From positions 992,001 through 1,056,000 of the forward strand of contig OY970320.1 of the NCBI GenBank assembly GCA_963716745.1: DNA of 64,000 nucleotides. Reading direction: 5' to 3'. Below the pieces are notes generated by a model. It ran no database searches and was not told where the DNA came from. It saw nothing but the letters and a program-made list of their open reading frames with translations. The translations under genes and the position numbers were made by a program. Of this stretch, positions 8,001 through 33,554 are shown one piece after another. Each line of letters starts with the position of its first letter. The first letter of the stretch is position 1. The DNA comes from an uncultured Gemmatimonadaceae bacterium. Lineage in GTDB: Bacteria > Gemmatimonadota > Gemmatimonadetes > Gemmatimonadales > Gemmatimonadaceae.

Positions 8001-8009
8001 ACGTTCACG

Positions 8010-8275
8010 GCGAACAGCATCGCCAGCGCGCTTAGAATCGCAGTGAACAGTACACAGTGATCGAGTAACGGCCAGTCTACAGTCTACAGTCAACAGGTCA
8101 CAGAAGGCGGCGCCATGCATGTCGCAGGTTCATCGATGCCGATCCGGCGCCGTGGGACCTGCGACGAGTGTGAGACCGGTTTCTGTGACCTGTTGACTGT
8201 AGACTGTTGACTGGCAGTCACTCGGGGACTGTTGGCTGTTTACTGCAGCTCTCCGAACCTGGTGATGATGTTCGC
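8010..8275. repeat. 266-bp palindromic MITE-like element, copy 2
   Basis: Ends gcgaacagcatcgccag / ctggtgatgatgttcgc; colinear with 5923..6188. Confidence 0.85.
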
Positions 8276-8286
8276 AGTCCCGAACC

Positions 8287-9210
8287 TCACCGCGCGAGCA
8301 GCGATTCCAGCAACGCCCCCAACCGATATCCCGCCACCGCGATCCGCCGTTCACTCACCTGCGTCGCATGATCCATATACCCCTCCGGCGCCGCCGCGCC
8401 GCGCAGGATCCCGCAGCAATACACCTCATGCTGCGCGAGCACGAGCGATTCCCGCCCCCACGCATCGAAACTCGTGATCGCGATAAGACTCGCCACCGAA
8501 TCGCGCGGCACCGCGGCCGTGACGATCGCGGACACGCGGTCAATGTAGGCTTCCTCGGACTCGCCCGCCTGCCGTGGATAGCGCGCCGTGAGGATGCGGT
8601 CCCAATACCAATGGAGCGACATCTTCCCATCGAGCGCGAACGTATTGCCGCCCTTATCGCCGTCCGGTTCTTCCGCCGTGACGCGGCCGCTCGCGTGCAG
8701 CGGCTGATGGATATCGCCCGCGAGGTGCATGACCCAGGCGAGCGCGATCGCGCGGTCCGCGGCGCTCGCGGTCGTATCGCGCACGATACGCGACTGGCGG
8801 TCGAGCTCGGTGAGGATATTCGCGCTGTCGGCATGGAGCGTCGTGGACTCGACGATCGCGCCGTCCGGCATCTCGCTCCAGAACCAATCGTGATAGTGCC
8901 ACGTGGGACAATGGTACGCGTGCCGCGCTTCCGGATCGCGTGCGCGAATGACGTCGGCCCACGTGCCCGCGCGCTCCGCGAACAGGAGTTCACTGAGCGA
9001 ATCGTCACCCATGGGCCGCAGATCGGCGAGCCCCGCGTCGCCCGGCGCGCGCGCGAGCAAGGCCGTCACCTGGCCACGCACTTTCGGGGACAACTGCTCC
9101 CAGGCGATCCGCACGATCACCATGTGACCCGTCTCGTCCCAGGCGCGGGCCGGCCGCGCGGCGAGTGCAAGAAGGATGGCGGCGGCTGCGACGCTGCGAT
9201 GTGTGCGCAT
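8287..9210 (-). CDS. S1/P1 nuclease
   Basis: Mature N-terminus WDETGH, WAD, WHY, HLAGDIHQPLH, GDKGGN, LHWYWD zinc-ligand motifs. Confidence 0.93.
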   Translation of the reverse strand: MRTHRSVAAAAILLALAARPARAWDETGHMVIVRIAWEQLSPKVRGQVTALLARAPGDAGLADLRPMGDDSLSELLFAERAGTWADVIRARDPEARHAYHCPTWHYHDWFWSEMPDGAIVESTTLHADSANILTELDRQSRIVRDTTASAADRAIALAWVMHLAGDIHQPLHASGRVTAEEPDGDKGGNTFALDGKMSLHWYWDRILTARYPRQAGESEEAYIDRVSAIVTAAVPRDSVASLIAITSFDAWGRESLVLAQHEVYCCGILRGAAAPEGYMDHATQVSERRIAVAGYRLGALLESLLAR

Positions 9211-18646: not shown

Positions 18647-19363
18647 TCAGTTCCCGCGCGGTGCCGGCGGCGGGCTGACCCCATCTTCGACGTTGATCGC
18701 TTCCGCCGGCGCACCCCGGCCGCCGAGGATCACGATCGTGTATGCCTTGCCGGCTTCGAGATGCACCGGCTTGAGGATCATCGGTTTCACCGACTTCGCG
18801 TTCACGCGGACGTCGAGCGTGATCGTCGCAGGGGCGACGTCCTTGTAGCCCGCCTCGTCCGTGAAGTCGGCGCCCTGGAACAGCGCCGCCTTCTCGCCGA
18901 GCACCGCGAAATCGGCGCTCTTCACCGACGGCGATGCGTTGATGACGCGGATGCGCGCCTTGCCCGGATCGGCCGCGACATTGTCGCGCACGACGCGGAT
19001 CTGGGTCGCACCATTATCACCCGGCAGTATGAGCACCGTGTAACGCACGCCGTCGAGCATCATCTCGCGATCGTCGGCCAGCAGCTGGTTGTCATCCGCC
19101 GCCAGCGCGCGGAGCGCGATGAGCGAATCCCTCACCTGGGCGTAGGGCGTGACCTGCTTGTAGTTCACGCCGCTGAATAGCGTGCGATCGTCGCCGGTGA
19201 CGTCCACCTTCTTGCCGGACGGGAGCGCGTTCACGACGCGCACCATCGATCTCCCGGTGCGAGCGGCGTCCGTGCCGGAGGGACTCCCCTGCCGGCACGC
19301 GGCCGCCGCGGCGATCGCCATCGTGACGGCGAGCAACTGGGCCGAGGTGATCATTGCGCTCAC
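18647..19363 (-). CDS. DUF4397 domain lipoprotein
   Basis: AAAAC lipobox; VRVVNALP..VDV and IRVINASP repeats. Confidence 0.85.
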   Translation of the reverse strand: MSAMITSAQLLAVTMAIAAAAACRQGSPSGTDAARTGRSMVRVVNALPSGKKVDVTGDDRTLFSGVNYKQVTPYAQVRDSLIALRALAADDNQLLADDREMMLDGVRYTVLILPGDNGATQIRVVRDNVAADPGKARIRVINASPSVKSADFAVLGEKAALFQGADFTDEAGYKDVAPATITLDVRVNAKSVKPMILKPVHLEAGKAYTIVILGGRGAPAEAINVEDGVSPPPAPRGN

Positions 19364-19566
19364 ATCGTGGGGTACGAGCGCTCGAACTCGGCGACCTGAC
19401 GCTCGATCTCGTCGCGGCCTTCGCCGTACTTCCGCTGCAGCAGCCCCACGAGCTGGTCGCGCTTGCCGGCGATGTACTCGAGATCATCGTCGGTGAGCTT
19501 GCCCCACTTCTCGCGCACTCTGCCCCGCGCCTGCTTCCATGAACCTTCGATCTGATTCCAATTCAT
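19360..19566 (-). CDS. csbD: CsbD family stress protein
   Basis: MNWNQIEGSWKQARGRVREKWGKLTDDDL...G.RDQLVG.LQ.KYG; GGAGG RBS. Confidence 0.95.
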   Translation of the reverse strand: MNWNQIEGSWKQARGRVREKWGKLTDDDLEYIAGKRDQLVGLLQRKYGEGRDEIERQVAEFERSYPTM

Positions 19567-19597
19567 ATGGACCTCCTCGAATGCGTGCGACCAAGAA

Positions 19598-19703
19598 CAC
19601 AAAAGGCGCGCCCGAGCGCCGCGTGTGCGGCGTTCATGCGCGCCTTCGACTGGCAGACCGACTGCGCTGCCCGACAAGGCGACCCGGCCACCGACCCCCG
19701 GGC
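19598..19703 (-). promoter_or_regulatory. Structured leader motif, copy 1 (upstream of csbD)
   Basis: Sense: gcccgg..ccgggt cg CCTTGTCG ggcag..ctgcc AGTCGAAGGCGCGC..GCGCGCCTTTT. Confidence 0.8.
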
Positions 19704-19760
19704 CTCCGACTGCTGTGACCTTCCTTGTACCCTACGCACCTTTGCCCGGTTCCGTTGTGC

Positions 19761-20867
19761 TCACGAACTCAACAACACCGCCACCGGCTTCAGCCGGTCG
19801 ACATGGTCGCAGATCACCTTGATCATCACCGTGAGCGGCACCGCGATGATCGCCCCGGCCACGCCCCACACCCACGCCCACAGGATGAGACTGATGAATA
19901 GCGCCACCTTGTTGAGCGGCAATCCGCGCCCGAGTACCAGCGGCGTAACGATGTTCCCGGTGAGACTGTGCACGGTGAAGAAGGCGGCGCACACGATGAG
20001 CGTCTTCTCGATCCCGTCGAACGTGAGCAGGCACGCAGCACCGATGAACACCATGCTGATGATCGTACCGACGTACGGAATGAAATTCAGCACGGCGGCC
20101 AACGCGCCCCACAATGCGCCGTTGGGCAGGCCGGCCCATGCGAGCAGCCCCCATGTGAGCAGCCCCAATGCGACGCTGATCAGCGTCGTCAGCCCGAGAT
20201 ACCGAGCGGTCTGATGCTCGATCTCCGCCACCGCTTTCATGATCCGTTCCTGATCCTCGCGCTCGGCGAGCAGTCCGGTCACCTTGCGCTTGAACAGTTG
20301 GTCGGTGGAGGCGAGGAAGTATGTGAGGAACATCACGGTAATGAATCCCGCGAAGAAATCCATCGTGCCGCTCGTGAAGCGCGAGACCATGGCCGGCTCC
20401 TGCACGGCGACCTTCACCGCCGCTCCGGAGGAGGTATTCGCGGCGCGTTGGACCTGCTCCGCCGTCTGCTCGATGGTGGTGATCGGCCGCACCAGCTTCC
20501 GGATCTTCTGCTCGAGCTCGGGGATCGTCTCAGGCGCGCGCGTGAGCCATACCGTGGCCGGGCGGGCGAGCAGCACGCCGGCGGCCGTGAGCAGCGTGGC
20601 GCTGCCGAAGACCACGACGGCCGCGCCGATGGCGCTGGGCACGCCGAACTTCCTGAGCCCACGGATCGCCGGACCGAACAGCAAGCCGAGGAGCACGGAG
20701 ATCGTGATGGGCACCAGCACCGCGGACGCCCAGCGCATTGCCGCCAGCGCGATAATGACGAGGATCGCCACCTGCGGCGCGTTGCCGCGCATCAGCCTCA
20801 CGATCGGAGCGCGCGACCGGCGCGCGCCTTCGCGTGGGACATTGACGACACGCGGGAGAGCAGTCAC
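19761..20867 (-). CDS. AI-2E family transporter
   Basis: Multi-TM; LNFIPYVG, WGVAGAIIAVPL. Confidence 0.92.
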   Translation of the reverse strand: MTALPRVVNVPREGARRSRAPIVRLMRGNAPQVAILVIIALAAMRWASAVLVPITISVLLGLLFGPAIRGLRKFGVPSAIGAAVVVFGSATLLTAAGVLLARPATVWLTRAPETIPELEQKIRKLVRPITTIEQTAEQVQRAANTSSGAAVKVAVQEPAMVSRFTSGTMDFFAGFITVMFLTYFLASTDQLFKRKVTGLLAEREDQERIMKAVAEIEHQTARYLGLTTLISVALGLLTWGLLAWAGLPNGALWGALAAVLNFIPYVGTIISMVFIGAACLLTFDGIEKTLIVCAAFFTVHSLTGNIVTPLVLGRGLPLNKVALFISLILWAWVWGVAGAIIAVPLTVMIKVICDHVDRLKPVAVLLSS

Positions 20868-21133
20868 GCCACGGCCCGCTCGCGTGCGATCCGCGCCGCG
20901 CGCGACGCGCGCATGCGGCGCAGGACTTCCCGTGCGCGGCGCACATGCCTCGCGCGTTCGATCACCGCGTTCATCACCAGCGCCAACACGAGACCGACGC
21001 CCACCAGCGCCATGATCCCGTACAGCATTGCACGCCCGCTGCCGACCGGCGCCGAGTGGATGCGCGAAAAGCCGAGCGACGCCGCGGTGCCGCCCTGGAG
21101 CAGCAAGAAGATCGTAGACGGACGCATAATCAC
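20864..21133 (-). CDS. Small membrane hypothetical protein
   Basis: TM segment; 4-bp overlaps with both neighbours. Confidence 0.55.
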   Translation of the reverse strand: MIMRPSTIFLLLQGGTAASLGFSRIHSAPVGSGRAMLYGIMALVGVGLVLALVMNAVIERARHVRRAREVLRRMRASRAARIARERAVA

Positions 21134-21321
21134 CTCACCCGTTGATTGGCGGCCTTGTTCACCCAGAGCGGCAGACCGGCGGGCAGCGCCTGCGCCGCCG
21201 CGATCAACAACCGCCGCACTTCGGACGCTGGATTCTTGGTCTCGCGCCGGCGCGCTGGGACGCGCCGGGATTCCAACACACGCTCAAGTACCGCGATCTC
21301 GGACTCCTGCTCATGGCTCAT
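21130..21321 (-). CDS. Small hypothetical protein (63 aa)
   Basis: AAGGAG RBS before ATG 21321; coupled to the next gene. Confidence 0.5.
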   Translation of the reverse strand: MSHEQESEIAVLERVLESRRVPARRRETKNPASEVRRLLIAAAQALPAGLPLWVNKAANQRVR

Positions 21322-21348
21322 CGGTCGTCTCCTTAATCTCGATCGCCG

Positions 21349-21455
21349 AAAAACGAAGGCGCGTTGGCCGCCTCCGAGGAGAGCGACCAACGCGCCTTCG
21401 ACTGACGAAGCCTGCGCTTCGTCCGACAAGGGAGGCCGGCCGTTGCACCGGCCCT
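21349..21455 (-). promoter_or_regulatory. Structured leader motif, copy 2
   Basis: Sense: ggccgg..ccggcc tc CCTTGTCG gacgaagc gcag gcttcgtc AGTCGAAGGCGCGttgg..ccaaCGCGCCTTCGTTTTT; CATAAT just upstream. Confidence 0.8.
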
Positions 21456-21496
21456 CGCGTCATTATGACTGCACCGCCCCGAAGGGCCGAAATTTT

Positions 21497-21646
21497 CTAC
21501 CGCGACTTCTTCGTGCGCTTGCGGTTCGATTTTCCCGCCTTCTGCAGCGCGATCGCTACCGCCTGCTTCTGGGGCTTTCCCTCATGCATCTCGGTCTTGA
21601 TGTTCTCCGAGACCGTCTCGCGCGAGGATCCTTTCTTGAGCGGCAT
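21497..21646 (-). CDS. Small basic protein (49 aa), below the ORF-track cutoff
   Basis: [59 protein letters not shown]. Confidence 0.8.
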
Positions 21647-21671
21647 GGCTCCCTCCCGTCTCATATCCCAT

Positions 21672-21770
21672 AAAAAAGAAAAGGCGCGTGAGATCGGTGT
21701 GGCTGATCTCTTCGCGCCTTCGACTCGCGAGTCGCTTCACTCGCCCGCCAAGGTGGCCGCTCACGCGGCC
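21672..21770 (-). promoter_or_regulatory. Structured leader motif, copy 3
   Basis: Sense: ggccgc gtga gcggcc a CCTTGGCG ggcgagt..actcgcg AGTCGAAGGCGCG..CGCGCCTTTTCTTTTTT. Confidence 0.85.
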
Positions 21771-21880
21771 TATGTCGCCCTGCTGGTTGTGAAATTATAC
21801 AGACCCATGAATCGCGCAAGAGGTCCAACACAAGAATTTTTCTAATGTGATGCTCCGCACACACGCTCTTATAATATGGA

Positions 21881-22612
21881 TTAAACGTGCTCCAGCAGCA
21901 GTTCCAGTTTGTGCCGCAGATCGCCGAGTGCCTTGGACTTGAACGCCCCCTTCGTCTCCTCGAGCACGGCCACCGTTTCCTTCACCGCGATCTGGAATTG
22001 CGCGCCACGCGGGCAGTTCATGAGCTGACACGGGTGCTGCTCAACCGATTGGTTCGTGAGCGCCTTGCCCAGCTGCTCGAGATCGGTGAGCGAACCCATC
22101 ACATTGCGCAGTGTGAGCGTGAGGAAGAGGTCCACCGGCACCTGGCCATCCGCGCCGCCCATCTTCGAGATGTGCTGGAACTCGTCGCGCCAGCCGCTCA
22201 GCCGCTCCTCGGTCTGGCGCATGGCCTGGAACGACCTAAAGCGCTTCACCGCGCGCGCCACCCGCTCGAGCAATTCGGGGAACGCGACGGGCTTCGTGAG
22301 ATAGGCCACCACGGGCAGGTCGATCGATGCGATCGCGCTGCGGACGGACGGGAATCCCGTCAGGATGATCACCGGCAATCCCCCGCTCTGCTCCGCGATC
22401 TTGCGCACCAGTTGGAGATCGGAGTTGCCGGGCATCTCGAGATCGGTGATCAGAAGGTCGAACGATTCGCTCGCCGCGGCCTTGAGCGCCGCGTCACCAT
22501 CCTGAACAGTGGTGCATTCGTATCCTTCCGCGCGCAACAGATCCGCGGTCGCGCTCAGGAAGGTCGGTTCGTCGTCCGCCAACAGGATCCTGCCGAGTGA
22601 CTTCCCGTTCAT
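21881..22612 (-). CDS. Response regulator with unrecognised helical output domain
   Basis: ILLADDE...ITDLEMPG...ILTG...YLTKP receiver; AAGGAGG RBS. Confidence 0.9.
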   Translation of the reverse strand: MNGKSLGRILLADDEPTFLSATADLLRAEGYECTTVQDGDAALKAAASESFDLLITDLEMPGNSDLQLVRKIAEQSGGLPVIILTGFPSVRSAIASIDLPVVAYLTKPVAFPELLERVARAVKRFRSFQAMRQTEERLSGWRDEFQHISKMGGADGQVPVDLFLTLTLRNVMGSLTDLEQLGKALTNQSVEQHPCQLMNCPRGAQFQIAVKETVAVLEETKGAFKSKALGDLRHKLELLLEHV

Positions 22613-25504
22613 GCCGTGTCCTCCTTCGTTGCGTGCAATGGTAGCGTGACGACGAACTCGCACCCTTCGCCGTCCACATCGTGTACGCCGATGGTGCCGC
22701 CGGCGGCCGTCACGGTGCGGCGCACGAGCGCGAGCCCGAGCCCCATGCCCCCGGTGCGCAGCCGCCCGCTCTTCGTGCTATAGAAGGGCTCGAAGATCCG
22801 TTCGCGCGACTCAGGCGGAATGCCCGCGCCGTGATCGCGCACGCGCAATTCGAAATGTCCGTTGTTCGCAATGGTGCGCACGGTCACGGTGCCGCCGCTT
22901 GGCGACGCCTCGATCGCGTTCTGCACCAGGTTGTAGGCGATCTGCCGGAGCAGCGCGCCGGGCAGCGGCAGGATGAGCGGCCCGCGACCGAGTTCCACCA
23001 CCACATGCACGCCGGTCGCGCGGTTCACCTGCTCGAGGAACGACACGCGCGTCGCCGATCACGGTCGCGATCGCCGCGCCGGCCTGCGAGTCGTGCTCCG
23101 GCCGGTACGTCTCGTAGAGTTGACGCGTCACCGCCGCGATGCGCGCCACCTCGCGCTCGATCGCGCCAACGTACTTGTAGTGCGGATGCGTCGCGGGGAT
23201 CGCGCCCTTGATGAGCAAGAACGAATTCTGGATGCCGGCCAGCGGATTGTTGATCTCGTGCGCCACCTGCGCGGCGACGCGCCCCATGGTGGTGAGCGTC
23301 TCCACCTCGCGCAGCGTCGCCTCGGCGCGCCGTCGTGCCGTGAGATCGCGCGCCTCCAAGAGCAGCTGCGTGTGTTCCTCGCTCTCGCCCGTGAGCGCCT
23401 TCACCGCGATCTCGATATGCGTCGCCTCGCCTGCCGGACCGCTGAATTCCTCCTCATACCGGCGCGTGAGCCCGCGTGCCGCCGCCGCGGTGGCGGAGCG
23501 CAGCCGCTCCTGCGCCTCGGGATTCCCGTGCCACCAGAGCGTGTTCCATGCGAGCTTGCCCCGCACGTCGTCGGCCGCGACGCCGAAGTCGTCCAGCGCG
23601 TGTTGATTGATCTCCACCACCAGGCCGCCGCGATCGAGCAGCAATTGGAATTGGAAGCCGCTGTCGAATACTTCGCGGAAGCGCTGCTCGGCGGCCTCGC
23701 GCGCCTGCGTGGCCGAGCGCGCGACCGTGACGTCGGCCTTGATGCCGACCATGCGCGCGGGATGGCCGCTGGCCGTGCGGTCCACCACGCGGCCGCGGTC
23801 CACGATCTGATGCCATTTGCCATCGCGCGCGAGCACGCGGTATTCGGCCTCGTAGCTGGGCCGCGCACCGCTGAGATGCTCCTCGATCTCACGGGCGAGG
23901 CGCGGCTGATCCTCGGGATGCACGAGCGCGATCCACGCGTCGCGGATCGGCGGCACCGATTCCGGATCGTATCCCAGGTAGCGCCAGATGCCCGGACTGT
24001 GCACCGATCCGCCGGTGAGCAGATCCCACTCCCAGATCCCGTCGGTCGTGCGCTCCAGCGCAGCGGTGATGCGCGAACGTTCGAGGTCGCGCACGCTCCG
24101 GAGCGAGCGCTGCGCGAAGCGCACGCTCACCGGCACCAGCCCGCTCACCGCGAATCCCATGAGCAGCACCAGCAGCGGCAGACTCGACCGCACGCCATCG
24201 ACGGTATCCTGCGTGGGCCATGCCGCGAGCGTGGCGTGCACCGCCCCGAGATCCAGACCAAGCCACTGTATCCACTGCCGCGTCGCGTCCGAATCGGCGG
24301 TGGGGCCGGCAAGGCGGCCAGCGCGGCCAATGATCGCGTAGTGGAATCCTCGCGAGGTATCGGGTATCACATCGCGGAAGAGCCGCGCGGTGCGCATTAC
24401 CGCGACCATCGTGCCGCTGCAGACATTGATCGCGCACGCCGGCGCGAGGATCACGAATCGCTTCGTCGCCGAGTCGAGCGGCAGGAAGGCGATGCTGTCG
24501 GGCAGCCTGGCATTGCGATTCACGTACGCGAGGGTCACCGAGTCCGCCCCCACGCCCGCGAGCGATGGCGAGGTGACCGTATCGATCACGCCGAGCGATG
24601 AGATCCAGCCGGCGGCCTCGAGACCGGGCACGTCGCGTTGCAGCGCTGCGATATCGCGGCGCTGCTGGTCGAACGACGCGCCGGACGCGCGCCACTCGCT
24701 CGCGCGATGGAGCGAGTGCGCCGTGACCACCGCCTCGCGCACGAGCACGCGCCGCCGCTCTTCGCCCGCTTGGCGCGTGAGCGCCACGACCTGATCGTTC
24801 TCGCGCGATGCGAGACCGCGCCAGAGCACGATGACCGTGACGACGCCCGCGATGCCGAGCGCCGTGGGCAGCCAGGTGGCGGAATCTCCGGAGAGCAGGC
24901 CGCGTGACCAGACGAGCGCGACATAGCAACTCCCGATCAGGAAGCCCGCGATCAAGACCTGGAGCGACGGGCCGGCGCCGAGCATGTCGATCGTGGTGTG
25001 CGTGATGCCGGTCGCGCGCGCGATGAGGAGCGTCGCCGCCACGGCGAGCAGCACGAACCCGGCGATGCCGACCGATGCATCTTCCGGTAGCAGCCGTCGA
25101 CGCGCCGAGACGACGGCCAGCGGCGTCGCGGCGGCGAGCACCAGTACCGCCGAGGCGAGCGCCATTGCGTCATGCGAGATCGTGGTGGGCGCGACCTGCG
25201 CGAGGAGACTCAGCACCGCGGTCAACTCCGCCATCAGCGCGGCTAGGAATGCGGAACGGTACCGCTGCTGAAGGAATTGCCAGAGCGCGAAGCCGATCGC
25301 GACCAGCGCGATCGATGCGAGCAACGGAAGGCGCGGCCAACCGGCCAAGGGCTGCGCGAGCCGTGAGAGCCCCGGCAATTCGCCCAGCATGCCGGCGATG
25401 CCCATGAGGCCGCTGACCACGGCATACACGTAGCCCGACCGGTACGCCGCGAGGGCGAGCGGTGACGTGAGTTCGGTTCGACGCGGTGAGTCCGATTCCG
25501 TCAT
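22609..25504 (-). CDS. Membrane PAS-PAS sensor histidine kinase; frameshift near 23045
   Basis: TM region, GIWEWD/VHPED PAS, H-box AHEINNPL; N/G boxes (NLVQNA, DHGAGI, FEPFYSTK, GLGL) in ORF 22609..23046. Confidence 0.92.
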
Positions 25505-25728
25505 TGCGCAGGGTATAGATGAACGAAAAGGCACGAACGCCGCGCAACGCTCGCGCGGAGATCCGTGCCTTCGGCTTTCGGAGCTCGCCTCCGCCCGCCA
25601 AGACTTATTGCCATGTGCGATCCCTACAATAGTAAGGTATAGCGCCGAGTTTTCATGTGCGCAAGAGTCCGCGAATGCGGGGCTTGCGCCGTGGAACAAG
25701 CGGGCCTACGTTGGGTTTCAAGACACGC

Positions 25729-25829
25729 AGCCCCGCGGTTCGGGGCTCCTTGGCGGACGAGTGAAGCTGGCTCGTGAGTCGAAGGCGCGAACGGGATCGG
25801 TTCACCGATCTCCCGCGCCTTTTTTATTT
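25729..25829 (+). promoter_or_regulatory. Structured leader motif, copy 4
   Basis: agccccg..cggggct CCTTGGCG gacgagt..gctcgtg AGTCGAAGGCGCG..CGCGCCTTTTTTATTT. Confidence 0.85.
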
Positions 25830-25867
25830 CCGGTGGCTTCGGCCGCCTGATGGTATAGATGACGAAC

Positions 25868-25978
25868 GGACCGGCGATGCGGCCGGTCCCCTTAGCGGGC
25901 GAAGCAGCGGCTTCGTCAGTCGAAGGCGTGTTGGCGGTTCCCGATCCCAGGGAACCGCCGGCACGCCTTCAGTGCTTT
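25868..25978 (+). promoter_or_regulatory. Structured leader motif, copy 5 (tandem with copy 4)
   Basis: ggaccgg..ccggtcc CCTTAGCG ggcgaagc agcg gcttcgtc AGTCGAAGGCGTG..CACGCCTTC; weak U-tract. Confidence 0.8.
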
Positions 25979-26023
25979 CCGGCAGCCGCACGCCGGTCAA
26001 TCGAATTCTTCAGGAGGTGTGCC

Positions 26024-26203
26024 ATGTTGCGTTGGGCCCTCGGGTTCCTGGTGCTGGCGTTGATCGCCGCCTTCTTCGGCTTCGGTGGCATCGCCGCCGC
26101 GTCCGCCGGCATCGCGAAGACGTTGTTCTTCCTGTTCCTGCTCATCTTCGCCGTCACGCTCATCCTGGGGCTGATGGCGGGAAGAAAAGTCACCGATCTC
26201 TGA
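26024..26203 (+). CDS. DUF1328 (YtjA/UPF0391) membrane protein
   Basis: AGGAGG RBS; MLRWALGFLVLALIAAFFGFGGIAAASAGIAKTLF. Confidence 0.93.
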   Translation: MLRWALGFLVLALIAAFFGFGGIAAASAGIAKTLFFLFLLIFAVTLILGLMAGRKVTDL

Positions 26204-26268
26204 CGGCGTTCCACGAACCCGCCGCGCGGACGACCATCCGCGTGGCGGGCCTCTTACCTGAGTGATCC

Positions 26269-26712
26269 ATGCCAGAGGCCAAAGCGACGAACGGCTCGAC
26301 GCACGCCGGCTTCTCCGCCGGATTCCGCGCATTCGCGGAACGCACCGAGACCGTGCTCGGTTCGCCATGGGCCTTCGGCGCGGCACTCGGCGCCGTTTTG
26401 CTCTGGGCGGCCCTCGGGCCGCGCTATCACTACTCGGAGACGTGGCAGATCGTGATCAACACCGGGACGACCATCGTCACCTTCCTAATGGTCTTCCTCC
26501 TGCAGAACACGCAAATGCGCAGCTCCACAGCGCTGCACCTGAAGATCGACGAACTATTGCGCGCGGTGGGCGATGCGCGCACCGGACTCGTCGGATTGGA
26601 GAACAAGCCGGACGAAACGCTCGAGCGCGTCGCCCATGAGTTCGATCAGATCGCCAAGTCGCAAACGGACGTCGTCATTCCAGCCCCATCTACCCGAACA
26701 CAGGGAGCATGA
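26269..26712 (+). CDS. Low-affinity iron permease (Fet4-like) family protein
   Basis: SETWQIVINTGTTIVTFLMVFLLQNTQ...LHLKIDEL. Confidence 0.92.
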   Translation: MPEAKATNGSTHAGFSAGFRAFAERTETVLGSPWAFGAALGAVLLWAALGPRYHYSETWQIVINTGTTIVTFLMVFLLQNTQMRSSTALHLKIDELLRAVGDARTGLVGLENKPDETLERVAHEFDQIAKSQTDVVIPAPSTRTQGA

Positions 26713-27095
26713 ACATGCCACACACCAGCCCACTCACCGGCGCGATCGACTCGACGCGCGATGCGATCGTGGACACGAAGGACAATCTGGCCGACGCGGC
26801 GTCGCGCGTGCAGGACAAGGTCTCGAGCAAGTTCGACAACGGCCGCACGGCTGCCGCGAACAAGCTCGCGGACGCCGCGGAGAGCCTGCACGAGCGCGTC
26901 AACCGGATCGGCGAGATCGGCCACGACGCCGCCGACAGAGTCGATGCCACCGCGCGCTATCTCAAGAAGCACTCGGCCAAGGAAATGGCGAGCGACCTCG
27001 GAGAGCTTGTGAGAGCCCATCCCGGGAAGTCACTGCTCGTCGCCGCGGCCGCCGGCTTCATCGTCGCGCGCGCGTTCCGGAGCAGCAATGACTGA
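26709..27095 (+). CDS. ElaB/YqjD (DUF883)-like tail-anchored protein
   Basis: Helical repeats ending VRAHPGKSLLVAAAAGFIVAR. Confidence 0.7.
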   Translation: MNMPHTSPLTGAIDSTRDAIVDTKDNLADAASRVQDKVSSKFDNGRTAAANKLADAAESLHERVNRIGEIGHDAADRVDATARYLKKHSAKEMASDLGELVRAHPGKSLLVAAAAGFIVARAFRSSND

Positions 27096-27474
27096 ACCCG
27101 CCGTCGCGGCCGGCAGCGTGCGCCGCCCCGTTTCCGACATCGTGCGCGACCTCCTGGGCAATCTCGACCGGATGGTGCGGTCCGAGGTGCGCCTCGCCAT
27201 GGAGGAAGCACGTGAGGACATCGGAGCGTCGCGCGCATCGGCGACGATGCTCGTTGCCGGCGCGGCGCTCGGGTATCTCGCGATCGGATTCCTTCTCCTG
27301 GCCGCGTTCCTCGTCATCGAGACCGCGGTCGCCCCGTGGCTCGCGGCATTGCTCGTCGCCGTGGGCGCCGGATCCGCCGCGACCGGCGTGATCCTCACCG
27401 GCCTCGACCGCATCCGATGCGCACGCGCCGCGCGAGCGACGGAATTCGAACCCCGACGGGAGCACACGCTATGA
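27088..27474 (+). CDS. YqjE-like 'phage holin family' membrane protein
   Basis: VRSEVRLA..E motif plus two TM helices; follows ElaB-like gene. Confidence 0.8.
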   Translation: MTEPAVAAGSVRRPVSDIVRDLLGNLDRMVRSEVRLAMEEAREDIGASRASATMLVAGAALGYLAIGFLLLAAFLVIETAVAPWLAALLVAVGAGSAATGVILTGLDRIRCARAARATEFEPRREHTL

Positions 27475-27854
27475 CGACGATCACGGGACGATTGCGGCGC
27501 GAGATCGCCGCCGAACAGCACGCGATCGGAGAGCATCTGCATGAACTCGAGACGCGGGTGCGCGACGTGGGTGACTGGCGCGTCCAGGTGGACCGCCGGC
27601 CCCTCGTGATGCTCGGGCTCGCGTTCGGAGGTGGCGCGGCGCTCTCCGCACTCGCGGGGCCGCGGCGGCGCCGCCGCCGGCACAACGGGGCCGCACCACT
27701 CGCGGACGAAGCGCAGCGCGCACCGGCCGAGCCGTCCGCCTCGAGCGAGGCGTGGCGCCGGTTCAAAGGCGCGCTGCTCGCGACGGTCGCCGTGCAGGCC
27801 GCCGAAGTGATCGGCGAAGTGCTGCCCGGATTCCGCGACGAATTCACGTCGTGA
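27471..27854 (+). CDS. Hypothetical protein (DUF3618-like position in operon)
   Basis: ATGA coupling; DWRVQVDRRPLVMLGLAFGGG. Confidence 0.65.
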   Translation: MTTITGRLRREIAAEQHAIGEHLHELETRVRDVGDWRVQVDRRPLVMLGLAFGGGAALSALAGPRRRRRRHNGAAPLADEAQRAPAEPSASSEAWRRFKGALLATVAVQAAEVIGEVLPGFRDEFTS

Positions 27855-27872
27855 CCAGCCCAGGAACGGACC

Positions 27873-28301
27873 ATGCCCAAACGAGCGCACCACAAACGCG
27901 ATATCGCGGTATCGCAGTTGGAGACGGCGCTGCGGTTGCACGATGGGCTGGACGATGACTACGCCGTGATCAACCTCGCGGGGGCCGCGGAGCGCATCCT
28001 TGGCGGTCTCGTGGCCGACCGCAGCGTGTCCGGCCGGTTCCCCGCGCTGAAACGCTCGAAGAGCCGGCTCAAGCGATGGCTCAAGCGCGCGGGGCGGCGC
28101 TCGAGTGGGCGGCGGCGCGCACTCAACGCGGCGCTGCGCGCGGTGCAGGACCACGAACTGGGAGATCCGCAGGAGGTCATGTTCGACGCGCGCGAACACG
28201 CGGCCGAACTCTTGCACCGCGCCATCGTGCATGTGTGGGCGCTGGAGCAACTCGCCTCGCCGAGCATGGTCGCCTTCTCGGCCGCGCGCGCGAGCGGCTG
28301 A
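27873..28301 (+). CDS. Hypothetical protein
   Basis: K.DIAVSQLETAL.L...VINLAGAAE.ILG looks protein-like; operonic position. Confidence 0.6.
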   Translation: MPKRAHHKRDIAVSQLETALRLHDGLDDDYAVINLAGAAERILGGLVADRSVSGRFPALKRSKSRLKRWLKRAGRRSSGRRRALNAALRAVQDHELGDPQEVMFDAREHAAELLHRAIVHVWALEQLASPSMVAFSAARASG

Positions 28302-28311
28302 CCGCGCGGCG

Positions 28312-29515
28312 TCAGCGGTCGAAGCGGAACATCGCGGCGTCGGGGTCGGCGCGCCCCGTATGCAGCGCGGTGATCATCCGCGCCGCGATCATGCTGAAGG
28401 TGATGCCGTTCCCGCCGTAACCAAGCGCAAAGTAGGCGCCCGGGCACGCCGCGCACTCGCCAATGTATGGGAGCCCGTCGGGGCTCTCGCCGAACGTGCC
28501 GGCCCAGGCATACGCGGGATCGAACCGGATCTCCGGGAACGCGCGGCGGAAGTACCGCGCGAGCGCCGTAGCCTTCGCGGGCAGCCGCGCGTCGCGTAGC
28601 CGCGCGTTCTTCCAAGGGATGTCGCCGCCCCCGATCATCGCGCGCATGTCCGGCGTGGTGCGCATGTAGTGGTATGGCCGCGCGGATTCCCAGATCAACG
28701 CGCGGTCGGGCCACCCATGCATCTCGCGCACCGGCTCACTCACCATGGCATACGTGCTGTGCAGTGCGCCCACGCGCCGTCCTACGTACTGTTCCGACGC
28801 ATAGCCGGTCGCGAAGACGATGCGGTCGGCGATCACTCTCGGCCCGTCGGCAGTTCGCAGTGCCATGCGCCGCTTGGACGCCTCGAACCGCACCATCTCC
28901 GTGCGCTCGTACACGCGCGCACCATGCACGATCGCGTGCGCGAGCAGCCGGTGCGTGAAGCGCACCGGATCGATCTCGCCATCGCCGCGCGAGACGATCG
29001 CGCCCGCATTGCGCAGCGTGGAGCGCCGCGCGATCGCCTTGCGGTCGAGGAATTCCACGTCGAATCCGTGCTGCGCGAGTGCGCCATACACGGTCTTGAG
29101 CCGGCTGACGTCCCAGCGCCGGCGCGCGACATACCATGAATCGCGGTGCTGCGAAGCCGCAGGTATCCGCGATGTCGATCGTGAGACGCCGAATGGATTC
29201 GATCGCGTCGAGCCCGAGCCGCAGCGCGCGCACGGCATACGCCTCGCCCACCCGGGCGATGAGATCGGGCAGCTCGACATCGACTTCGTACTGCAGCAGC
29301 CCGGTGCTCGCCGCCGTGCTCGCCGCGCCGATATCGCCGCACTCGAGCACGACGACATCCACGCCGGCATCCGCCAACTGGTGCGCCATGAGCGCGCCGG
29401 TCACCCCGCCGCCTACGACGCACACCTCACAACGTTCATCCCGCTTGAGTGCGGGGTACGCGGCGAGGATGCCGTTCTTGAGCAGCCAGAACGGATGTCC
29501 CGAGCGCAGCTTCAC
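28312..29515 (-). CDS. FAD-dependent oxidoreductase (DadA/PuuB-like); frameshift near 29145
   Basis: VVGGGVTG, ASTAASTGL; DGLPYIG, GYGGNGIT. Confidence 0.88.
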
Positions 29516-29517
29516 GC

Positions 29518-30003
29518 TCAGTCGATGCGCGGCGGATCGATCCCCAGCGCGGTCGCCAGATCGGAGAGGTGCTCCTGCTCGTCCTTGAGGATCTCGCGGA
29601 TGTGCTCACTCATCGCGAACTCGCCCAGCGATTCGCACTGCGCGATCCGCTTGCGGTATTCCCCGATCGTGACGCGCTCGTTCTCGAGGTCGAAGCGCAG
29701 CATCTGCTCCGCCTTGTCCGATGTCTTCACGATCTTCGCGACGACCGGCGGGTCGCCGCCGAGGTAGTCGATCTGTTTGGCGATGATCAGCGCGTGCTTC
29801 AATTCCTCCGCGGCGTGCTTCTCCAGCTCCGCAGCGATGGACATATACGCCGCGCCCTTGAGCACCTGCGAGTACACGACGTAGGCGATGATCGCCTGAT
29901 ACTCGCGCGAGAGGTCCTCGCCGAGCGCGGCGATGAGGTCGGCACGCGTGGTGGATGGGGCGCCGCTGGGGGCAGCGACGGTCGCGCTCTCTTTCTTCGG
30001 CAT
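29518..30003 (-). CDS. Ferritin-like/bacterioferritin domain protein
   Basis: EYQAIIAY, EELKHA, E..TIGEY, DEQEH diiron motifs. Confidence 0.9.
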   Translation of the reverse strand: MPKKESATVAAPSGAPSTTRADLIAALGEDLSREYQAIIAYVVYSQVLKGAAYMSIAAELEKHAAEELKHALIIAKQIDYLGGDPPVVAKIVKTSDKAEQMLRFDLENERVTIGEYRKRIAQCESLGEFAMSEHIREILKDEQEHLSDLATALGIDPPRID

Positions 30004-30029
30004 GATGAGTCCGGTGAATGGTTGGTGGA

Positions 30030-31924
30030 TCAGTCGGTGACGCGCAGCCGGCGTACGACGGCCGCGGTGATCGCGCGGCGCGCACGCGCGAATTCGCGCC
30101 AAGGATCTTCGCGCTGCGCATCGAGCCGCGCGGGTACGTTCTGCACATTGAAATGATCGAAGCGGCGATCTTCGTCCAACTCGTTCCAGTGGATCGGCGT
30201 CGCGACCGGTGCGCCGGCGCGCGCGCGCACGGAGTATGGCGCCACTGCGGTGGCGCCCTCGGCGTTGCGAAGCCAATCGATGAAGATCTTCCCCGCGCGC
30301 TTGGCCTTCGAAGCCGTCGCCACATAGCGATCGGGCTGCGCGGCGGCCATCGATTCCGCGACCGCGCGGCAGAAATCCTTGGCCTGCGTCCACGTGATCG
30401 TCGGACGGATCGGCACCACCACGTGAAGTCCTTTGCCGCCGGTGGTCTTGAGGAACGGCCGGAGGCCGGCGCGTTCGAGCGTCGTCACGCAAGGCGAGCA
30501 CACCGTCCACCACCGCTTCGCCAGCTGCTGCCTTCATCCGGATCGAGATCGAAGATCAGGATGTCGGGATGCTCGAGATGCGGGGCGCGCGATCCCCAGG
30601 GGTGCAGCTCCACGACGCCCCACTGGACGAGCGACGCGAGCGCCTTGGCCGAGCCCGCGCTCGCGTAGGTCGCGCTGCCCCCACTCTCGTGCACGCGCAC
30701 TCGCTTCACGGCCGCGCCGACGGCTGCCTCAATGTGTTTCTGGAAAAAGCAGTGCTCGCCCACGCCATCGGGGCATCGCAGGAGGCTGAGCGGGCGCTCG
30801 CGCAAATGCGGCACGAGCGCGGGCGCGACGCGCACGTAGTACTCGGCGAGTTCGCGCTTCGTGGGACCCGCGGGAGGAAAGATGAGTTTGTCGGGGTGCG
30901 AGATCGCGACGCCCGCCACCTTGCCGCTCTCGCGCGCGCGCGCCGGCTTCACCTCGGCCTCTCGCTCTCGCACGACGTCTTTCGCTTGCTTGTCCATACG
31001 CAGTCCCGTGAACGATGGATGGCGCAACGCACCGTCCTCGCTCCATTCGGTGAACTCCACTTCGGCAACGAGCTCCGGCTTCACCCAGTGTACGCCTTTC
31101 GCGTCGGCTCCGCGCGGCGGGTCCGCGAAGGGAGGCTCGGCACGCTCGAGACGCCGGAGTTTCTCCGAGAGCTCGGCAAGCATCGCCTCATCGAACCCGG
31201 TCCCGACCCGCCCCGAATAGCGGAGATCGTGCCCATCGTACACGCCCAGCAGGAGTGCGCCGAACCCACGACGCGCACCCTGCGGATCCGTGTAGCCGCC
31301 CACGACCATCTCCTGCCGGCGCGTACACTTCACCTTCACCCAATCGGCGCTGCGCTCGCCGCTGCGGTACGGCGAGTCGACGCGCTTGGATATCGCCCCT
31401 TCGAGGGAGAGCGCACAACTCTGCCGGAAGAACTCCGTGCCGGAGCCGCTCACTTCCGGTCCGACGCGCACATGGGCGCTTCCGCGTCCGACGATCTTGT
31501 GCAGTTCGCGCTTGCGCTCCCGCAGCGGCCGGTGCCGGAGATCGATCCCGTCCAGGTACATCACATCGAAGAGCATGAGCGTGAGGTCACGCGCGCGAGT
31601 GCCGGAGAGCCCGTTCTGCAGCGCCTGGAAGCTGGAGCGGCCGCGGGCGTCCATGACGACGAGCTCGCCGTCGAGCCATGCGTTCGACAGGTCGAGCGCG
31701 CCGAGTTCCTTTGCGATGACGGCGAGTTGCGCCGTCCATTCCTTGCCGTTGCGCGAGAAGACGCGCGCCTCGCCGTCCTCGATGCGGCTTAGCATCCGGT
31801 AGCCGTCGTACTTGATCTCGTGCAGCCAACCCGTGCCCGCGGGCGCGCGTTTCACGAGCGTGGCGAGCATAGGCTGCATGCGCGCCGGCAATTGCCGGCG
31901 CTCGAGGCGGTGCGCGGTGCTCAT
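30030..31924 (-). CDS. ligD: DNA ligase D (ligase + polymerase domains); frameshift near 30490-30530
   Basis: EIKYDGYR, EGAISK, WVKVK; FDLDP, KTTGGKGLHV, IFIDWLRN. Confidence 0.93.
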
Positions 31925-32769
31925 GCGTGTTTGCGGCGGTGCATGACCGCGCGCCGAGGCGCGGCCGTCTGCTTCTTCCCGAGGCTCCGCTCGAGCAGCG
32001 CGGTGAGATCGAGCACCTTGGTGCCGCCCGTCTCAGCTCCACTCTCCTGTTTCGGCTCGGCGATCCGCTCGGTGTCGCCCTTCTTGATCTTCCGGCGGAT
32101 GAGCGCGAGCAGGTCGCGGTGGTACGAATCCACGAAGCCCGAAGGATCCCACTCGCCCGCGAGATCATCCACGAGACGTTTGGCGAGCTGCAGGTCCTTG
32201 GCCGAGATGGCGGCCCCCTTCTTCCCGGCGGCGGGCAGATCGAGCCCCTTCGTACCGCGCAGCTCGCTCTCGTAGCGCATGATGTTGAGCATGAGCGCGG
32301 GCCCGTTCACCACGATCGCGCACAGATGCTGCGTCGTGTGCATCACGATCTGTGCGACCGCGGCGAGCCCTGTGTCGCGGATCGTCTCGCGGAAGAGCAC
32401 GTAGGCCTTTTCGCCGCGCTTGCCGGGCACGAGATAGTACGGTGTCTCGAAATACCAGGGCGGGATATCCTGCGCGGGTACGAAGTGTTCGATGTCGATC
32501 GTCTGCGTCGCCTTGACGTTCGCTCGCTTGAAATCCGCGTCGCTGAGCACGACGTAGCGATCCTTCTCGTATTCGTGTCCCTTCACAATGTCGTTCCAGG
32601 CCACCTCTTTGCCGCTGCGCTTGTTGTAGCGACGGTAGCCCACGGGCGACAGATCGTTCTTGTCGAGCATCGTGAAGGAGAACGCGCGGCGGTCCTCGGC
32701 GGGATGGAGTTCCACCGGGACGCTGACGAGTCCGAAGGAGAGCGAGCCACTCCAGAGTGCACGGGCCAT
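31921..32769 (-). CDS. ku: Ku NHEJ protein
   Basis: RALWSGSLSFGLVSVPV, IVKGHEY, PYYLVP, LDLTALLERSL. Confidence 0.95.
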   Translation of the reverse strand: MARALWSGSLSFGLVSVPVELHPAEDRRAFSFTMLDKNDLSPVGYRRYNKRSGKEVAWNDIVKGHEYEKDRYVVLSDADFKRANVKATQTIDIEHFVPAQDIPPWYFETPYYLVPGKRGEKAYVLFRETIRDTGLAAVAQIVMHTTQHLCAIVVNGPALMLNIMRYESELRGTKGLDLPAAGKKGAAISAKDLQLAKRLVDDLAGEWDPSGFVDSYHRDLLALIRRKIKKGDTERIAEPKQESGAETGGTKVLDLTALLERSLGKKQTAAPRRAVMHRRKHA

Positions 32770-32795
32770 GGGTCACCGAATGGTTCGCGGAGATG

Positions 32796-32889
32796 AAAAA
32801 AGGCGCGAGAGACCGGAGTGACCGATCTCATCGCGCCTTCGACTCGCGGCCCGCCTGCGCCGCGCGTCAAGGTGGCCGCCGAAGCGGCC
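32796..32889 (-). promoter_or_regulatory. Structured leader motif, copy 6 (upstream of ku)
   Basis: Sense: ggccgc ttcg gcggcc a CCTTGACG cgcggc..gccgcg AGTCGAAGGCGCGA..TCGCGCCTTTTTT. Confidence 0.85.
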
Positions 32890-32942
32890 TATTTCGTGCT
32901 ACCCCAATATCGGGTGGCCGGTCCGGCCACGCAACCCGATTA

Positions 32943-33497
32943 CTACTTCGTGATGTCGATCGCCGTCGCCTCGTTGTAACTCAGGATCATCTGGTCGCCT
33001 ATCTTTGCGCTGTTGAATGCCGTGACGCCAGGGTTCACTTTGAACGAATAGATCTTCCCGTTCGGATTGGCGAACGCGATGGTGCGGGTCTTCATGTCCA
33101 CGCCCGTGATCTTGCACACCACGTTCACGATCTTCACTTCATTGATGTCCGGCAGCCCGGCCGGTGTCACCGTGATCTTCTCAGGCGGCGCCGCGACCGA
33201 GGCATCGCCGGGGCGCCGCATCCAGAGCACCGTGGACTCCACGAACCTGACCGTCACCGTGTCGCCGACGTTCACCTTGAACTGATTGGTCGCGGCCGCC
33301 GGCAGCGTGAACTCATGCATTTGGCCGTTGGAGCCCTGCACCGTGAGCAGGTGCGCCTGGTAATCGTTGCCTAGCACGATCCCTTTCCAAACCGAGACAT
33401 CGCTCGGCACCTTCGGCTTCTCCTGCGCCACCGCGATCCCACATACCGCGACCAGTAGACCCGCCGCGATCCTGATCAATGCACGCATGGTGTTCAC
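32943..33497 (-). CDS. Secreted hypothetical protein with two OB-fold-like repeats (paralog 3)
   Basis: Shares WKGIVL, ITVTPAGLP.I motifs with the 16414 gene; start GTG 33497 or ATG 33488. Confidence 0.75.
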   Translation of the reverse strand: MNTMRALIRIAAGLLVAVCGIAVAQEKPKVPSDVSVWKGIVLGNDYQAHLLTVQGSNGQMHEFTLPAAATNQFKVNVGDTVTVRFVESTVLWMRRPGDASVAAPPEKITVTPAGLPDINEVKIVNVVCKITGVDMKTRTIAFANPNGKIYSFKVNPGVTAFNSAKIGDQMILSYNEATAIDITK

Positions 33498-33554
33498 CGT
33501 GTAGTTGTAGTTGAAGGCAACAGCCGACAGCCAACAGCCAGCCGTTAGTCGCGG

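Follow-up and report, generated by a model that had tools for sequence, protein, structure and literature searches.

What controls a set of stress-type genes whose operons begin with the same RNA? The question is raised by a 64,000-nucleotide stretch of the genome of an uncultured Gemmatimonadaceae bacterium (contig OY970320.1, positions 992,001 to 1,056,000; C1:992001-1056000 in our coordinates), which we call the window. The genome comprises 3,292,296 bases on one contig. In an island within the window, copies of a leader of about 100 bases stand ahead of operons that include csbD, DUF1328, an AI-2E transporter and ku-ligD, and also ahead of the operon for a sensor histidine kinase and a response regulator (Table 1). 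From comparative sequence analysis, we conclude that this leader is very probably an attenuator in which a terminator and an antiterminator compete. Beyond that, we give an even chance to the whole chain of a two-component antitermination system, made up of the kinase, the response regulator and the leader, that controls the general-stress regulon.

A repeated leader with two folds

A first-pass annotation of the window had described six copies of the leader in sense orientation ahead of csbD, the AI-2E operon, an open reading frame (ORF) of 49 amino acids, the DUF1328 operon (two copies in tandem) and ku-ligD. These copies are real, the positions and strands given for them are right, and the genes were correctly named; the first hairpin of copy 1 begins one base earlier, at 19704. 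Aligned to each other, the six copies have 30 invariant columns, with CCTT, CG and AGTCGAAGGCG among them. A covariance model built on copies 3, 4, and 6 (R1) scored the six copies at 34.8-116.4 bits when run on the window, and the next match had 17.7 bits. A broader model (R2) gave seven matches at 43.2-83.6 bits, and the next had 18.8. The seventh match is a more degenerate copy, a UCUU variant, that the first-pass annotation had missed (copy 7). The annotation also stated that no copy lies outside the island. This holds for the window and fails for the genome: R1 adds three further copies elsewhere, and R2 brings the genome total to 11, of which four lie beyond the window (C1:129423, 955868, 3118070, and 3150062). 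Scatter without regard to gene orientation, which the annotation had named as evidence against a switch, was not seen, as all 11 copies are in sense orientation ahead of ORFs.

Exact AGTCGAAGGCG occurs six times in the window, each time inside a copy. If one mismatch is allowed, it occurs seven times, where 2.95 are expected and 5 of 100 shuffled sequences reach seven. For the longer pattern CCTTRNCG-N15-35-AGTCGAAGGCG, there are six matches across the full genome, and the backwards control has none.

A search of the whole window against Rfam 15 at gathering scores gave no matches, which agrees with the annotation, to which the leader resembled no familiar riboswitch class. In E-value mode, positions 19000-33500 gave chance-level matches only; the best was to Chloroflexi-1, on the terminator of copy 2 (25.6 bits, as compared to a gathering score of 80; E = 0.14). 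Full-text searches of openly accessible literature returned no relevant title or abstract on stress-gene control and riboswitches or antitermination in Gemmatimonadota. As far as Rfam 15 and these searches went, the leader appears to be previously undescribed.

Each copy contains, in order, a hairpin (P1), a second hairpin (P2), and an intrinsic terminator. P1 is rich in G and C (GC-rich) and is variable in sequence and loop length. P2 starts one base after P1 and has the form 5'-CCUU-GNC-G...A-GNC-G-AAGG-3'. Its base is CCUU/AAGG, and above this are a bulged G, a GNC/GNC helix of three pairs (the middle one loosely paired), a G.A mismatch, and a top hairpin of variable length. Because GNCG is present on both strands, this core is nearly two-fold symmetric. 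The terminator abuts P2 without a linker. It is a two-part hairpin whose 5' strand opens with the AAGG of P2 (AAGGCGCG...CGCGCCUU), and a U-tract follows.

To describe the conservation of the leader, we used the best 150 of the 180 matches that R1 gave at E <= 1 across 886 kb around 80 loci of regulator relatives (see below). In this alignment, which was fitted to the model and supplies part of our covariation statistics, 94.0% of the cells hold standard pairs, as compared to 78.2% in shuffles. Both partners change in 18 of the 21 pairs, with 481 double-change cells versus 116 in shuffles, and if the partners are slid by 1-3 columns, just 33-52% are paired. We also assembled a set that does not depend on the model, from 39 matches that are less than 62% identical to each other and the copy from the distant locus L138. 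With these 40 sequences, MAFFT and RNAalifold recovered P2a, P2b, and the full terminator, with compensatory changes in 12 of 17 pairs; P1 was lost through misalignment. The covariation supports the annotation's reading that the hairpins differ in sequence while the pairing is kept.

Other parts of the core hardly vary. Among the 150 sequences, the conserved base is present in 142 at G65, 146 at C68, 149 at G70, 142 at A117, 149 at G119, and 149 at G122, and column C121 has C in 124 and U in 21. The loops of P1 and P2b vary in both length and sequence, from 4 to over 10 nucleotides. We considered whether the core might instead be a DNA operator, and rejected this because the spacing between its halves varies from about 16 to over 60 nucleotides and because the changes are compensatory at the RNA level.

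The base of P2 and the base of the terminator share AAGG. In each of the 150 sequences, we compared three tetramers, namely the 5' one, the middle one, and the one that follows the terminator's 3' CGCG. Most sequences (113) have CCUU/AAGG/CCUU, and 10 have CCUU/AAGG/CUUU. The altered triplets are few, and some are probably orthologues: CCCU/AGGG/CCCU in six sequences, CCUC/GAGG/CCUC in one, and CCUG/CAGG/CCUG in one, plus three misaligned sequences of like kind. The few leftover sequences are mixed cases. An independent and strongly diverged copy from another genome of the phylum (G106) has CUCG/CGAG/CUCG and retains the bulged G. Since the middle tetramer covaries with both its 5' and its 3' partner, the two folds compete, as the annotation had proposed. 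The bases are shared and both pairings have been kept in evolution, as in an attenuator. In the 150 sequences, the lower stem of the terminator (AAGGCGCG/CGCGCCUU) is 99.2% paired, with U-rich columns behind it, so the GC-rich hairpin and U-tract of an intrinsic terminator are both present, although the U-tract is weak in copy 5.

In all 11 copies from the genome, the minimum free energy fold places the tetramer in the terminator. Forcing the base of P2 to form costs 4.1-11.4 kcal/mol in eight of these copies; the core was not located in the other three. Because the terminator fold is the energy minimum, the default state is predicted to be OFF, so that stabilisation of the complete P2, by whatever means, would be expected to turn the gene ON. 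This fits the ON-type switch that the annotation had suggested. The annotation left the effector as either a ligand or an RNA-binding protein, and the evidence below leans towards a protein.

The adjoining response regulator

Copy 3 lies between the response-regulator gene and a 49-residue ORF, and copy 7 leads the kinase/regulator operon. We collected relatives of the regulator from 122 stretches of species genomes and kept 80 loci. These are labelled Gemmatimonadota, Gemmatimonadales, Gemmatimonadaceae, or Gemmatimonas, except for one "bacterium" and one Kuenenia bin. The closest relative of the regulator (98% identity, L039) is from an uncultured Gemmatimonadaceae bacterium. The best 150 leader matches are spread over 76 of the 80 loci. 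In 63 of the 78 loci with room for it, a copy lies on the same strand 61-288 nucleotides 3' of the regulator gene (median 125). Copies ahead of the kinase are on the same strand in 27 of 72 loci and divergent in 18 of 72. The kinase and the regulator are the only regulators common to the loci.

We also examined 150 other genomes from the phylum, evenly drawn. As 27 candidates per genome were scored, the counts from R2 are lower bounds. The leader is present in at least 16 of these genomes and the C-terminal 120 amino acids of the regulator in 17: both were found in 15 genomes, the leader alone in one (G149), the regulator alone in two (G106 and G042), and neither in 132. Presence and absence go together within genera. 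For instance, one genus (g35) has both in three of four genomes and neither in the fourth (G096), and another (g49) has both in two of five genomes and neither in the rest. An earlier scan found the motif in at least 6 of 41 relatives, which is again a lower bound (such scans scored 27-101 candidates per genome).

Some more distant relatives keep the arrangement too. The regulator-like gene of G106 is 30% identical to the island regulator (E = 6e-24), and the strongly diverged leader copy described above lies 31 nucleotides downstream of it. The protein itself (L123:2965-3756) has MR at the start of its receiver where others have DD, and may be a pseudo-receiver. Another distant member, P0145, is 46% identical to the island regulator and has nine full-length relatives on metagenome contigs with 53-59% GC. 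Five of the nine have the core (CCUUG.CG ... AGUCGAAGGC or AGUCAAAGGC, followed by a terminator) at 37-144 nucleotides 3' of the regulator gene. L138 has, in order, the kinase, the regulator, the leader (51.5 bits), and a NarL-type regulator.

Two simpler scans were set aside. A degenerate DNA pattern matched 59 of 151 phylum genomes, mostly without a hairpin and with a comparable backwards control, and these matches were not counted. A regular expression combined with a hairpin test, which overlooked known copies and gave 66 genome matches versus 34 in the reversed control, was replaced by covariance-model matches.

The C-terminal part of the regulator, about 120 amino acids, did not match any family in Pfam or NCBIfam, and in 90 of 90 members of the family no Pfam family was found in this output domain. 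Even at E <= 10, the regulator matched PF00072 and, weakly, FleQ only. In one database, 664 proteins match the C-terminal part, and all are annotated merely as receiver proteins; in another, 855 cluster representatives match it (E <= 0.001), and most of these are regulators of about 245 amino acids. Three longer members, two of them with no receiver found, have a PAS domain N-terminal to the output domain. This would fit an effector module.

Across the 90 members, which are 24-65% identical, two stretches of the output domain (21881-22249, minus strand) are nearly invariant: C-x4-C-P-R and T-K-x-x-F-K-S-K-x-L-G-x-L-R. The L138 regulator lacks both cysteines of the former.

A structure model based on 90 diverse sequences was predicted with a mean local distance difference test score (pLDDT) of 90.0 and a template-modelling score (pTM) of 0.76. 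It has a receiver, a long helix (residues 112-152), and four more helices. A protein-atlas search with the output domain gave no usable match. A sequence profile against the PDB matched receiver domains only; the third-best match, over residues 4-141, was 1s8n_A, a "putative antiterminator". When the model was compared to known structures with Foldseek and VIA-align, the lists were filled by receiver domains. The longest structural match was to EutV (6wsh_A, Z = 20.1, residues 5-169), and another EutV structure, 6ww6_B, had a query-normalised TM-score of 0.52; the EutV matches span the receiver and the linker helix only.

The kinase lies directly upstream, so the receiver is paired with a PAS/HisKA/HATPase kinase both here and in L138. 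In the window, the HATPase_c domain is in another frame (22609-23046, minus strand; E = 1.8e-28), and it ends at the start of the regulator. This split is due to a frameshift in the assembly or else to a true disruption of the gene. In the relatives L058 and L071, the kinase is a single ORF of about 960 amino acids.

Proposed mechanism, precedents, and rival explanations

We propose that the terminator fold is the stable default, with the gene OFF, and that the two folds are mutually exclusive over the four shared bases of AAGG. A factor acting in trans would clamp the complete P2 and so withhold AAGG from the terminator's 3' CCUU. The U-tract would then be displaced from the foot of the hairpin, RNA polymerase would read through, and the gene would be ON. 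The trans factor would be the regulator, activated by the adjoining PAS histidine kinase and recognising the nearly symmetric GNCG/GNCG core. The kinase/regulator operon's own copy would give positive feedback. Where the copy behind the regulator heads a second regulator of NtrC or LuxR type, as in many genomes, there would be a cascade. Together, the kinase, the regulator, and the leader would turn on the general-stress regulon. In this scheme, we infer the regulated termination, the read-through by stabilisation of P2, and the binding of RNA by the regulator.

The adjacent response regulator is the likeliest candidate for the effector, at about an even chance. We favour it because it is the sole regulator that travels with the leader across a deep divergence, because its own operon is led by a copy, because its receiver, long helix, and small helical bundle parallel those of ANTAR regulators, and because a quasi-symmetric RNA core would be expected for a dimer.

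Several observations weigh against this proposal. The adjacency could merely reflect membership in the same regulon or island, and the co-occurrence table overstates the association because kin genomes are not independent. There is no copy just 3' of the regulator in 15 of the 78 loci, and none was found behind the regulator in four of the nine loci from the distant clade. The regulator of G042 is 32% identical and has no copy within 16 kb. Conversely, G149, whose genome is 97% complete, has two copies (L124:5308-5411 and L125:5742-5845, at 50.9 and 46.9 bits) and no relative of the output domain at E <= 1e-5. No ANTAR domain (PF03861, at E <= 10) or other RNA-binding signature was detected in the output domain, which is not basic overall, by a count on the translated sequence. 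Finally, a hairpin of CGCG and the upper stem persists when P2 is complete, so the loss of termination is assumed.

The closest precedent is the ANTAR family of regulators (EutV, AmiR, NasR/NasT). As in those systems, the protein, with its receiver, long helix, and small helical output domain, would attach to the nascent leader at a hairpin whose 3' side is needed by an intrinsic terminator, and binding would lead to read-through. The overlap of the second hairpin with the terminator is also found here, as the bases of P2 and the terminator share AAGG. The domains differ, however: PF03861 was not detected in the regulator, and no match in the genome is over the cut-off (the best, located elsewhere, has 16.1 bits, as compared to a cut-off of 27.3). 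ANTAR targets are two hairpins with hexaloops that have a conserved A and G. In our leader, the loops vary instead of forming such hexaloops, and the conserved bases belong to a single hairpin, in its stem, bulge, and mismatch.

A similar comparison can be made to BglG, LicT, and SacY and their ribonucleic antiterminator (RAT) targets. In LicT-RAT, a hairpin is clamped by a protein dimer. That hairpin is also imperfect and quasi-symmetric, with internal loops, and lies over the 5' side of a terminator. The leader differs from RAT in sequence and size, there are no genes for sugar use or the phosphotransferase system, and the candidate protein is a two-component regulator. The RNA-binding domain of the LicT family (CAT_RBD, PF03123) had no matches in the genome at E <= 1 (the genome is 89.8% complete).

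Also, the yjbJ motif, a weak riboswitch candidate (WRC-39-1), is a terminator-hairpin leader before a CsbD-like gene. It has two hairpins, the second of which is the terminator, before a gene likened to the CsbD family, and it is reported from Streptococcus only, with 40 representatives (PMC11109978). Its sequence and host are unrelated to ours, and no Rfam match joins it to the leader.

Could P2 instead be a small aptamer? In an ON-type riboswitch, its ligand would be an ion or small molecule linked to stress, for instance a nucleotide second messenger, and the kinase/regulator operon would merely be one of those regulated. Like terminator-coupled riboswitches, the leader acts in cis, sets an aptamer-like hairpin against a terminator, and is found in many copies before unrelated genes (11 in this genome and up to 13 in relatives). 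Some copies are in tandem, which resembles second-messenger riboswitches. A few unpaired or bulged bases are near-invariant (G70, A117, and G122), and the core is kept across lineages that differ widely in GC content. Small terminator-embedded aptamers do exist: in the HMP-PP (thiS) riboswitch, a hairpin likewise competes with the terminator (PMC6478431). But the leader has very few conserved unpaired bases from which to build a pocket, and it matches no Rfam family at gathering scores. It tracks one co-inherited regulator family from genome to genome and adjoins its gene even at about 46% identity, which would be needless for a metabolite sensor, and in most loci this copy is 3' of the regulator gene, not ahead of it. 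The nearly two-fold symmetric core would suit a dimeric protein, by the example of LicT-RAT. So, we consider a riboswitch unlikely. If the effector did prove to be a ligand, the leader would still be a new and well-supported riboswitch-like class.

The same RNA-level evidence would hold for an attenuator with some other effector, either another RNA-binding protein or the polymerase itself, as with the put and EAR elements; the regulator would then have another target, such as DNA or a partner protein. In favour of this, no signature of nucleic-acid binding could be recognised in its output domain, and G149 has the motif with no regulator found. Yet no other gene consistently adjoins the leader (the first downstream genes vary among the 130 scanned), and the loci have no other regulators in common. 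The leader also overlaps a terminator, with three-way covariation; put and EAR elements are not known to overlap one. Another effector thus seems decidedly unlikely. We give very little credence to stand-alone small RNAs that act in trans, with the downstream genes independently transcribed. Each copy does have a promoter-like site and a terminator, and copy 4 precedes a second complete unit rather than a gene. But a start codon and its Shine-Dalgarno sequence follow the U-tract at only about 10-140 nucleotides, no second promoter is evident, the copies are without exception in sense to the gene that follows, and the loops, which would be the candidate seeds, vary in sequence and length. It is just as improbable that the leader is a passive dispersed repeat of stabilising 5' hairpins and leaky, unregulated terminators. 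The leader is repeated and GC-rich, with several hairpins and a strongly favoured terminator fold, as such a repeat might be, but it is not scattered: every genome copy is in sense ahead of an ORF, distant lineages have kept its core, with changes that are compensatory and three-way, and it is tied to a specific regulator family.

Returning to two-component antitermination, a broader claim is possible, and we rate it a little below an even chance. Under this claim, the regulator has a new type of RNA-binding output domain, the leader is its cognate target, and the two form an unrecognised class of two-component antitermination system. Working through a four-base strand exchange with a terminator, the pair would be the master stress switch of the Gemmatimonadota and of at least one lower-GC lineage, in the role that alternative sigma factors have in other phyla. 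If so, it would be a leader RNA and not a promoter that defines an entire regulon for stress (CsbD, DUF1328, DUF892, Ku-LigD, porin-like proteins, and secondary regulators). Antiterminating response regulators would include a second family, unrelated to ANTAR, and a large orphan family of output domains would gain a function. Because the RNA is small and well conserved, and because of the three-way covariation, the mechanism could be tested with few mutants.

Promoters and genes served by the leader

A promoter-like site precedes every copy in the window, at a distance of a few to about 20 bases, and most of these sites are sigma-70-like. The promoter of copy 3 is an extended -10 type (TGTATAAT), and that of copy 7 is CTTGCG-N17-TATACC, with the kinase's ATG at 25504. 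Among the 150 matches, 66 have TTG[CA]N-N15-19-TANNNT within 66 nucleotides upstream, whereas of 1500 stretches taken at random from these loci, 0.3% do. In the window, a start codon with a Shine-Dalgarno sequence lies about 25-45 nucleotides past the U-tract. With a promoter upstream and a start codon downstream, the leaders are probably at the very 5' end of the mRNAs, and the combination of housekeeping-type promoters with a common leader suggests control after initiation.

Copies 1 and 4 have a different upstream sequence (19745-19775, minus strand; 25690-25725, plus strand), with a GGAAC box about 16-17 nucleotides before GGT(A/T), which resembles promoters for extracytoplasmic function sigma factors. 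Two promoter classes may feed one type of leader. Also, a conserved single-stranded segment, GCAG ... GACAUA, lies about 5-25 nucleotides before P1 (such as at 21771-21790, minus strand, and in loci L039-L118). It is found mostly at the copy behind the regulator gene, between the likely transcription start and P1. ACAT is present within 25 nucleotides upstream of 50 of the 150 matches, versus 4% of controls, and GCAG in 62 of 150, versus 15%. By eye, we found no pairing partner for this segment.

A first ORF was predicted behind 148 of the 150 matches, and 130 of these were scanned with Pfam. The most common families were NtrC-type sigma-54 activators (23), CsbD (16), DUF1328 (11), DUF892 (6), outer-membrane beta-barrels (6), LuxR/GerE-type regulators (5), and PAS histidine kinases (2), and 61 ORFs had no family. 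As the loci were picked around the regulator, this tally is biased towards the regulator's neighbours. The 18 ORFs that were omitted, with at least 850 amino acids, are kinases by position, because all of them end at the start of the regulator. The tally bears out the stress-type gene set that the annotation had described. CsbD, DUF1328, DUF892/YciE-type proteins, and Ku-LigD are typical members of general-stress regulons. In these proteins, and in its small hydrophilic and membrane proteins, the set is similar to the regulons of sigma-B, RpoS, and EcfG/PhyR. In contrast to those sigma-driven regulons, the common element here is a leader RNA behind mostly housekeeping-type promoters, so that the regulon would be defined after initiation.

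Table 1. The leader copies and the main genes of the island. Coordinates are positions in the window and bit scores are from R2.
Feature	Position	Strand	Score or family	Remarks
Copy 1 (P1, P2, terminator)	19595..19704	-	62.1 bits	heads csbD
Copy 2	21348..21455	-	64.2 bits	heads the 63-aa/89-aa/AI-2E operon
Copy 3	21672..21770	-	83.6 bits	directly 3' of the response-regulator gene, 5' of the 49-aa ORF
Copy 7 (UCUU variant)	25520..25620	-	43.2 bits	heads the histidine kinase/response regulator operon
Copy 4	25729..25829	+	73.8 bits	first of the tandem pair before DUF1328
Copy 5	25868..25978	+	52.0 bits	second of the tandem pair
Copy 6	32792..32889	-	81.4 bits	heads ku-ligD
Response regulator, 244 aa	21881..22615	-	receiver PF00072 (E = 4.5e-23)	helical C-terminal domain of about 120 aa
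Sensor histidine kinase	22811..25504	-	PAS_3, PAS_4, HisKA	
csbD	19360..19566	-	PF05532 (E = 1.7e-19)	led by copy 1
63-aa, 89-aa, and AI-2E transporter operon	19761..21321	-	transporter PF01594 (E = 1.1e-49)	led by copy 2
49-aa lysine-rich ORF	21497..21646	-		led by copy 3; kept in L039 and L058
DUF1328, Iron_permease-like, unknown, and holin-X-like operon	26024..27474	+		led by copies 4 and 5
ku and ligD	30485..32769	-	PF02735; PF01068/PF04679/PF21686	led by copy 6

The small ORFs of the island have no relatives among known families: none was found for those of 63 and 89 amino acids (aa in Table 1), and the 49-residue ORF matched neither Pfam nor NCBIfam. The four copies outside the window precede a lipoprotein-like ORF, a 125-residue ORF with no family, a DUF6600 protein, and an AHSA1/SRPBCC protein.

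In 23 of the regulator loci, the leader 3' of the regulator heads an NtrC-type activator (these include L070, L073, L076, L077, L082-L084, L091, L092, L094-L098, L101, L102, L109, and L110, at about 7000-8700 on the plus strand). In five loci, the place of the activator is taken by a LuxR/GerE-type regulator, and in L138 by one of NarL type. A second regulator behind the leader suggests a regulatory cascade.

On the same strand behind ligD (28312-30537, minus strand), there are genes for a ferritin-like/rubrerythrin protein of 339 amino acids and a DAO-family oxidoreductase of 352 amino acids that uses flavin adenine dinucleotide. These genes may be part of the ku-ligD transcript.

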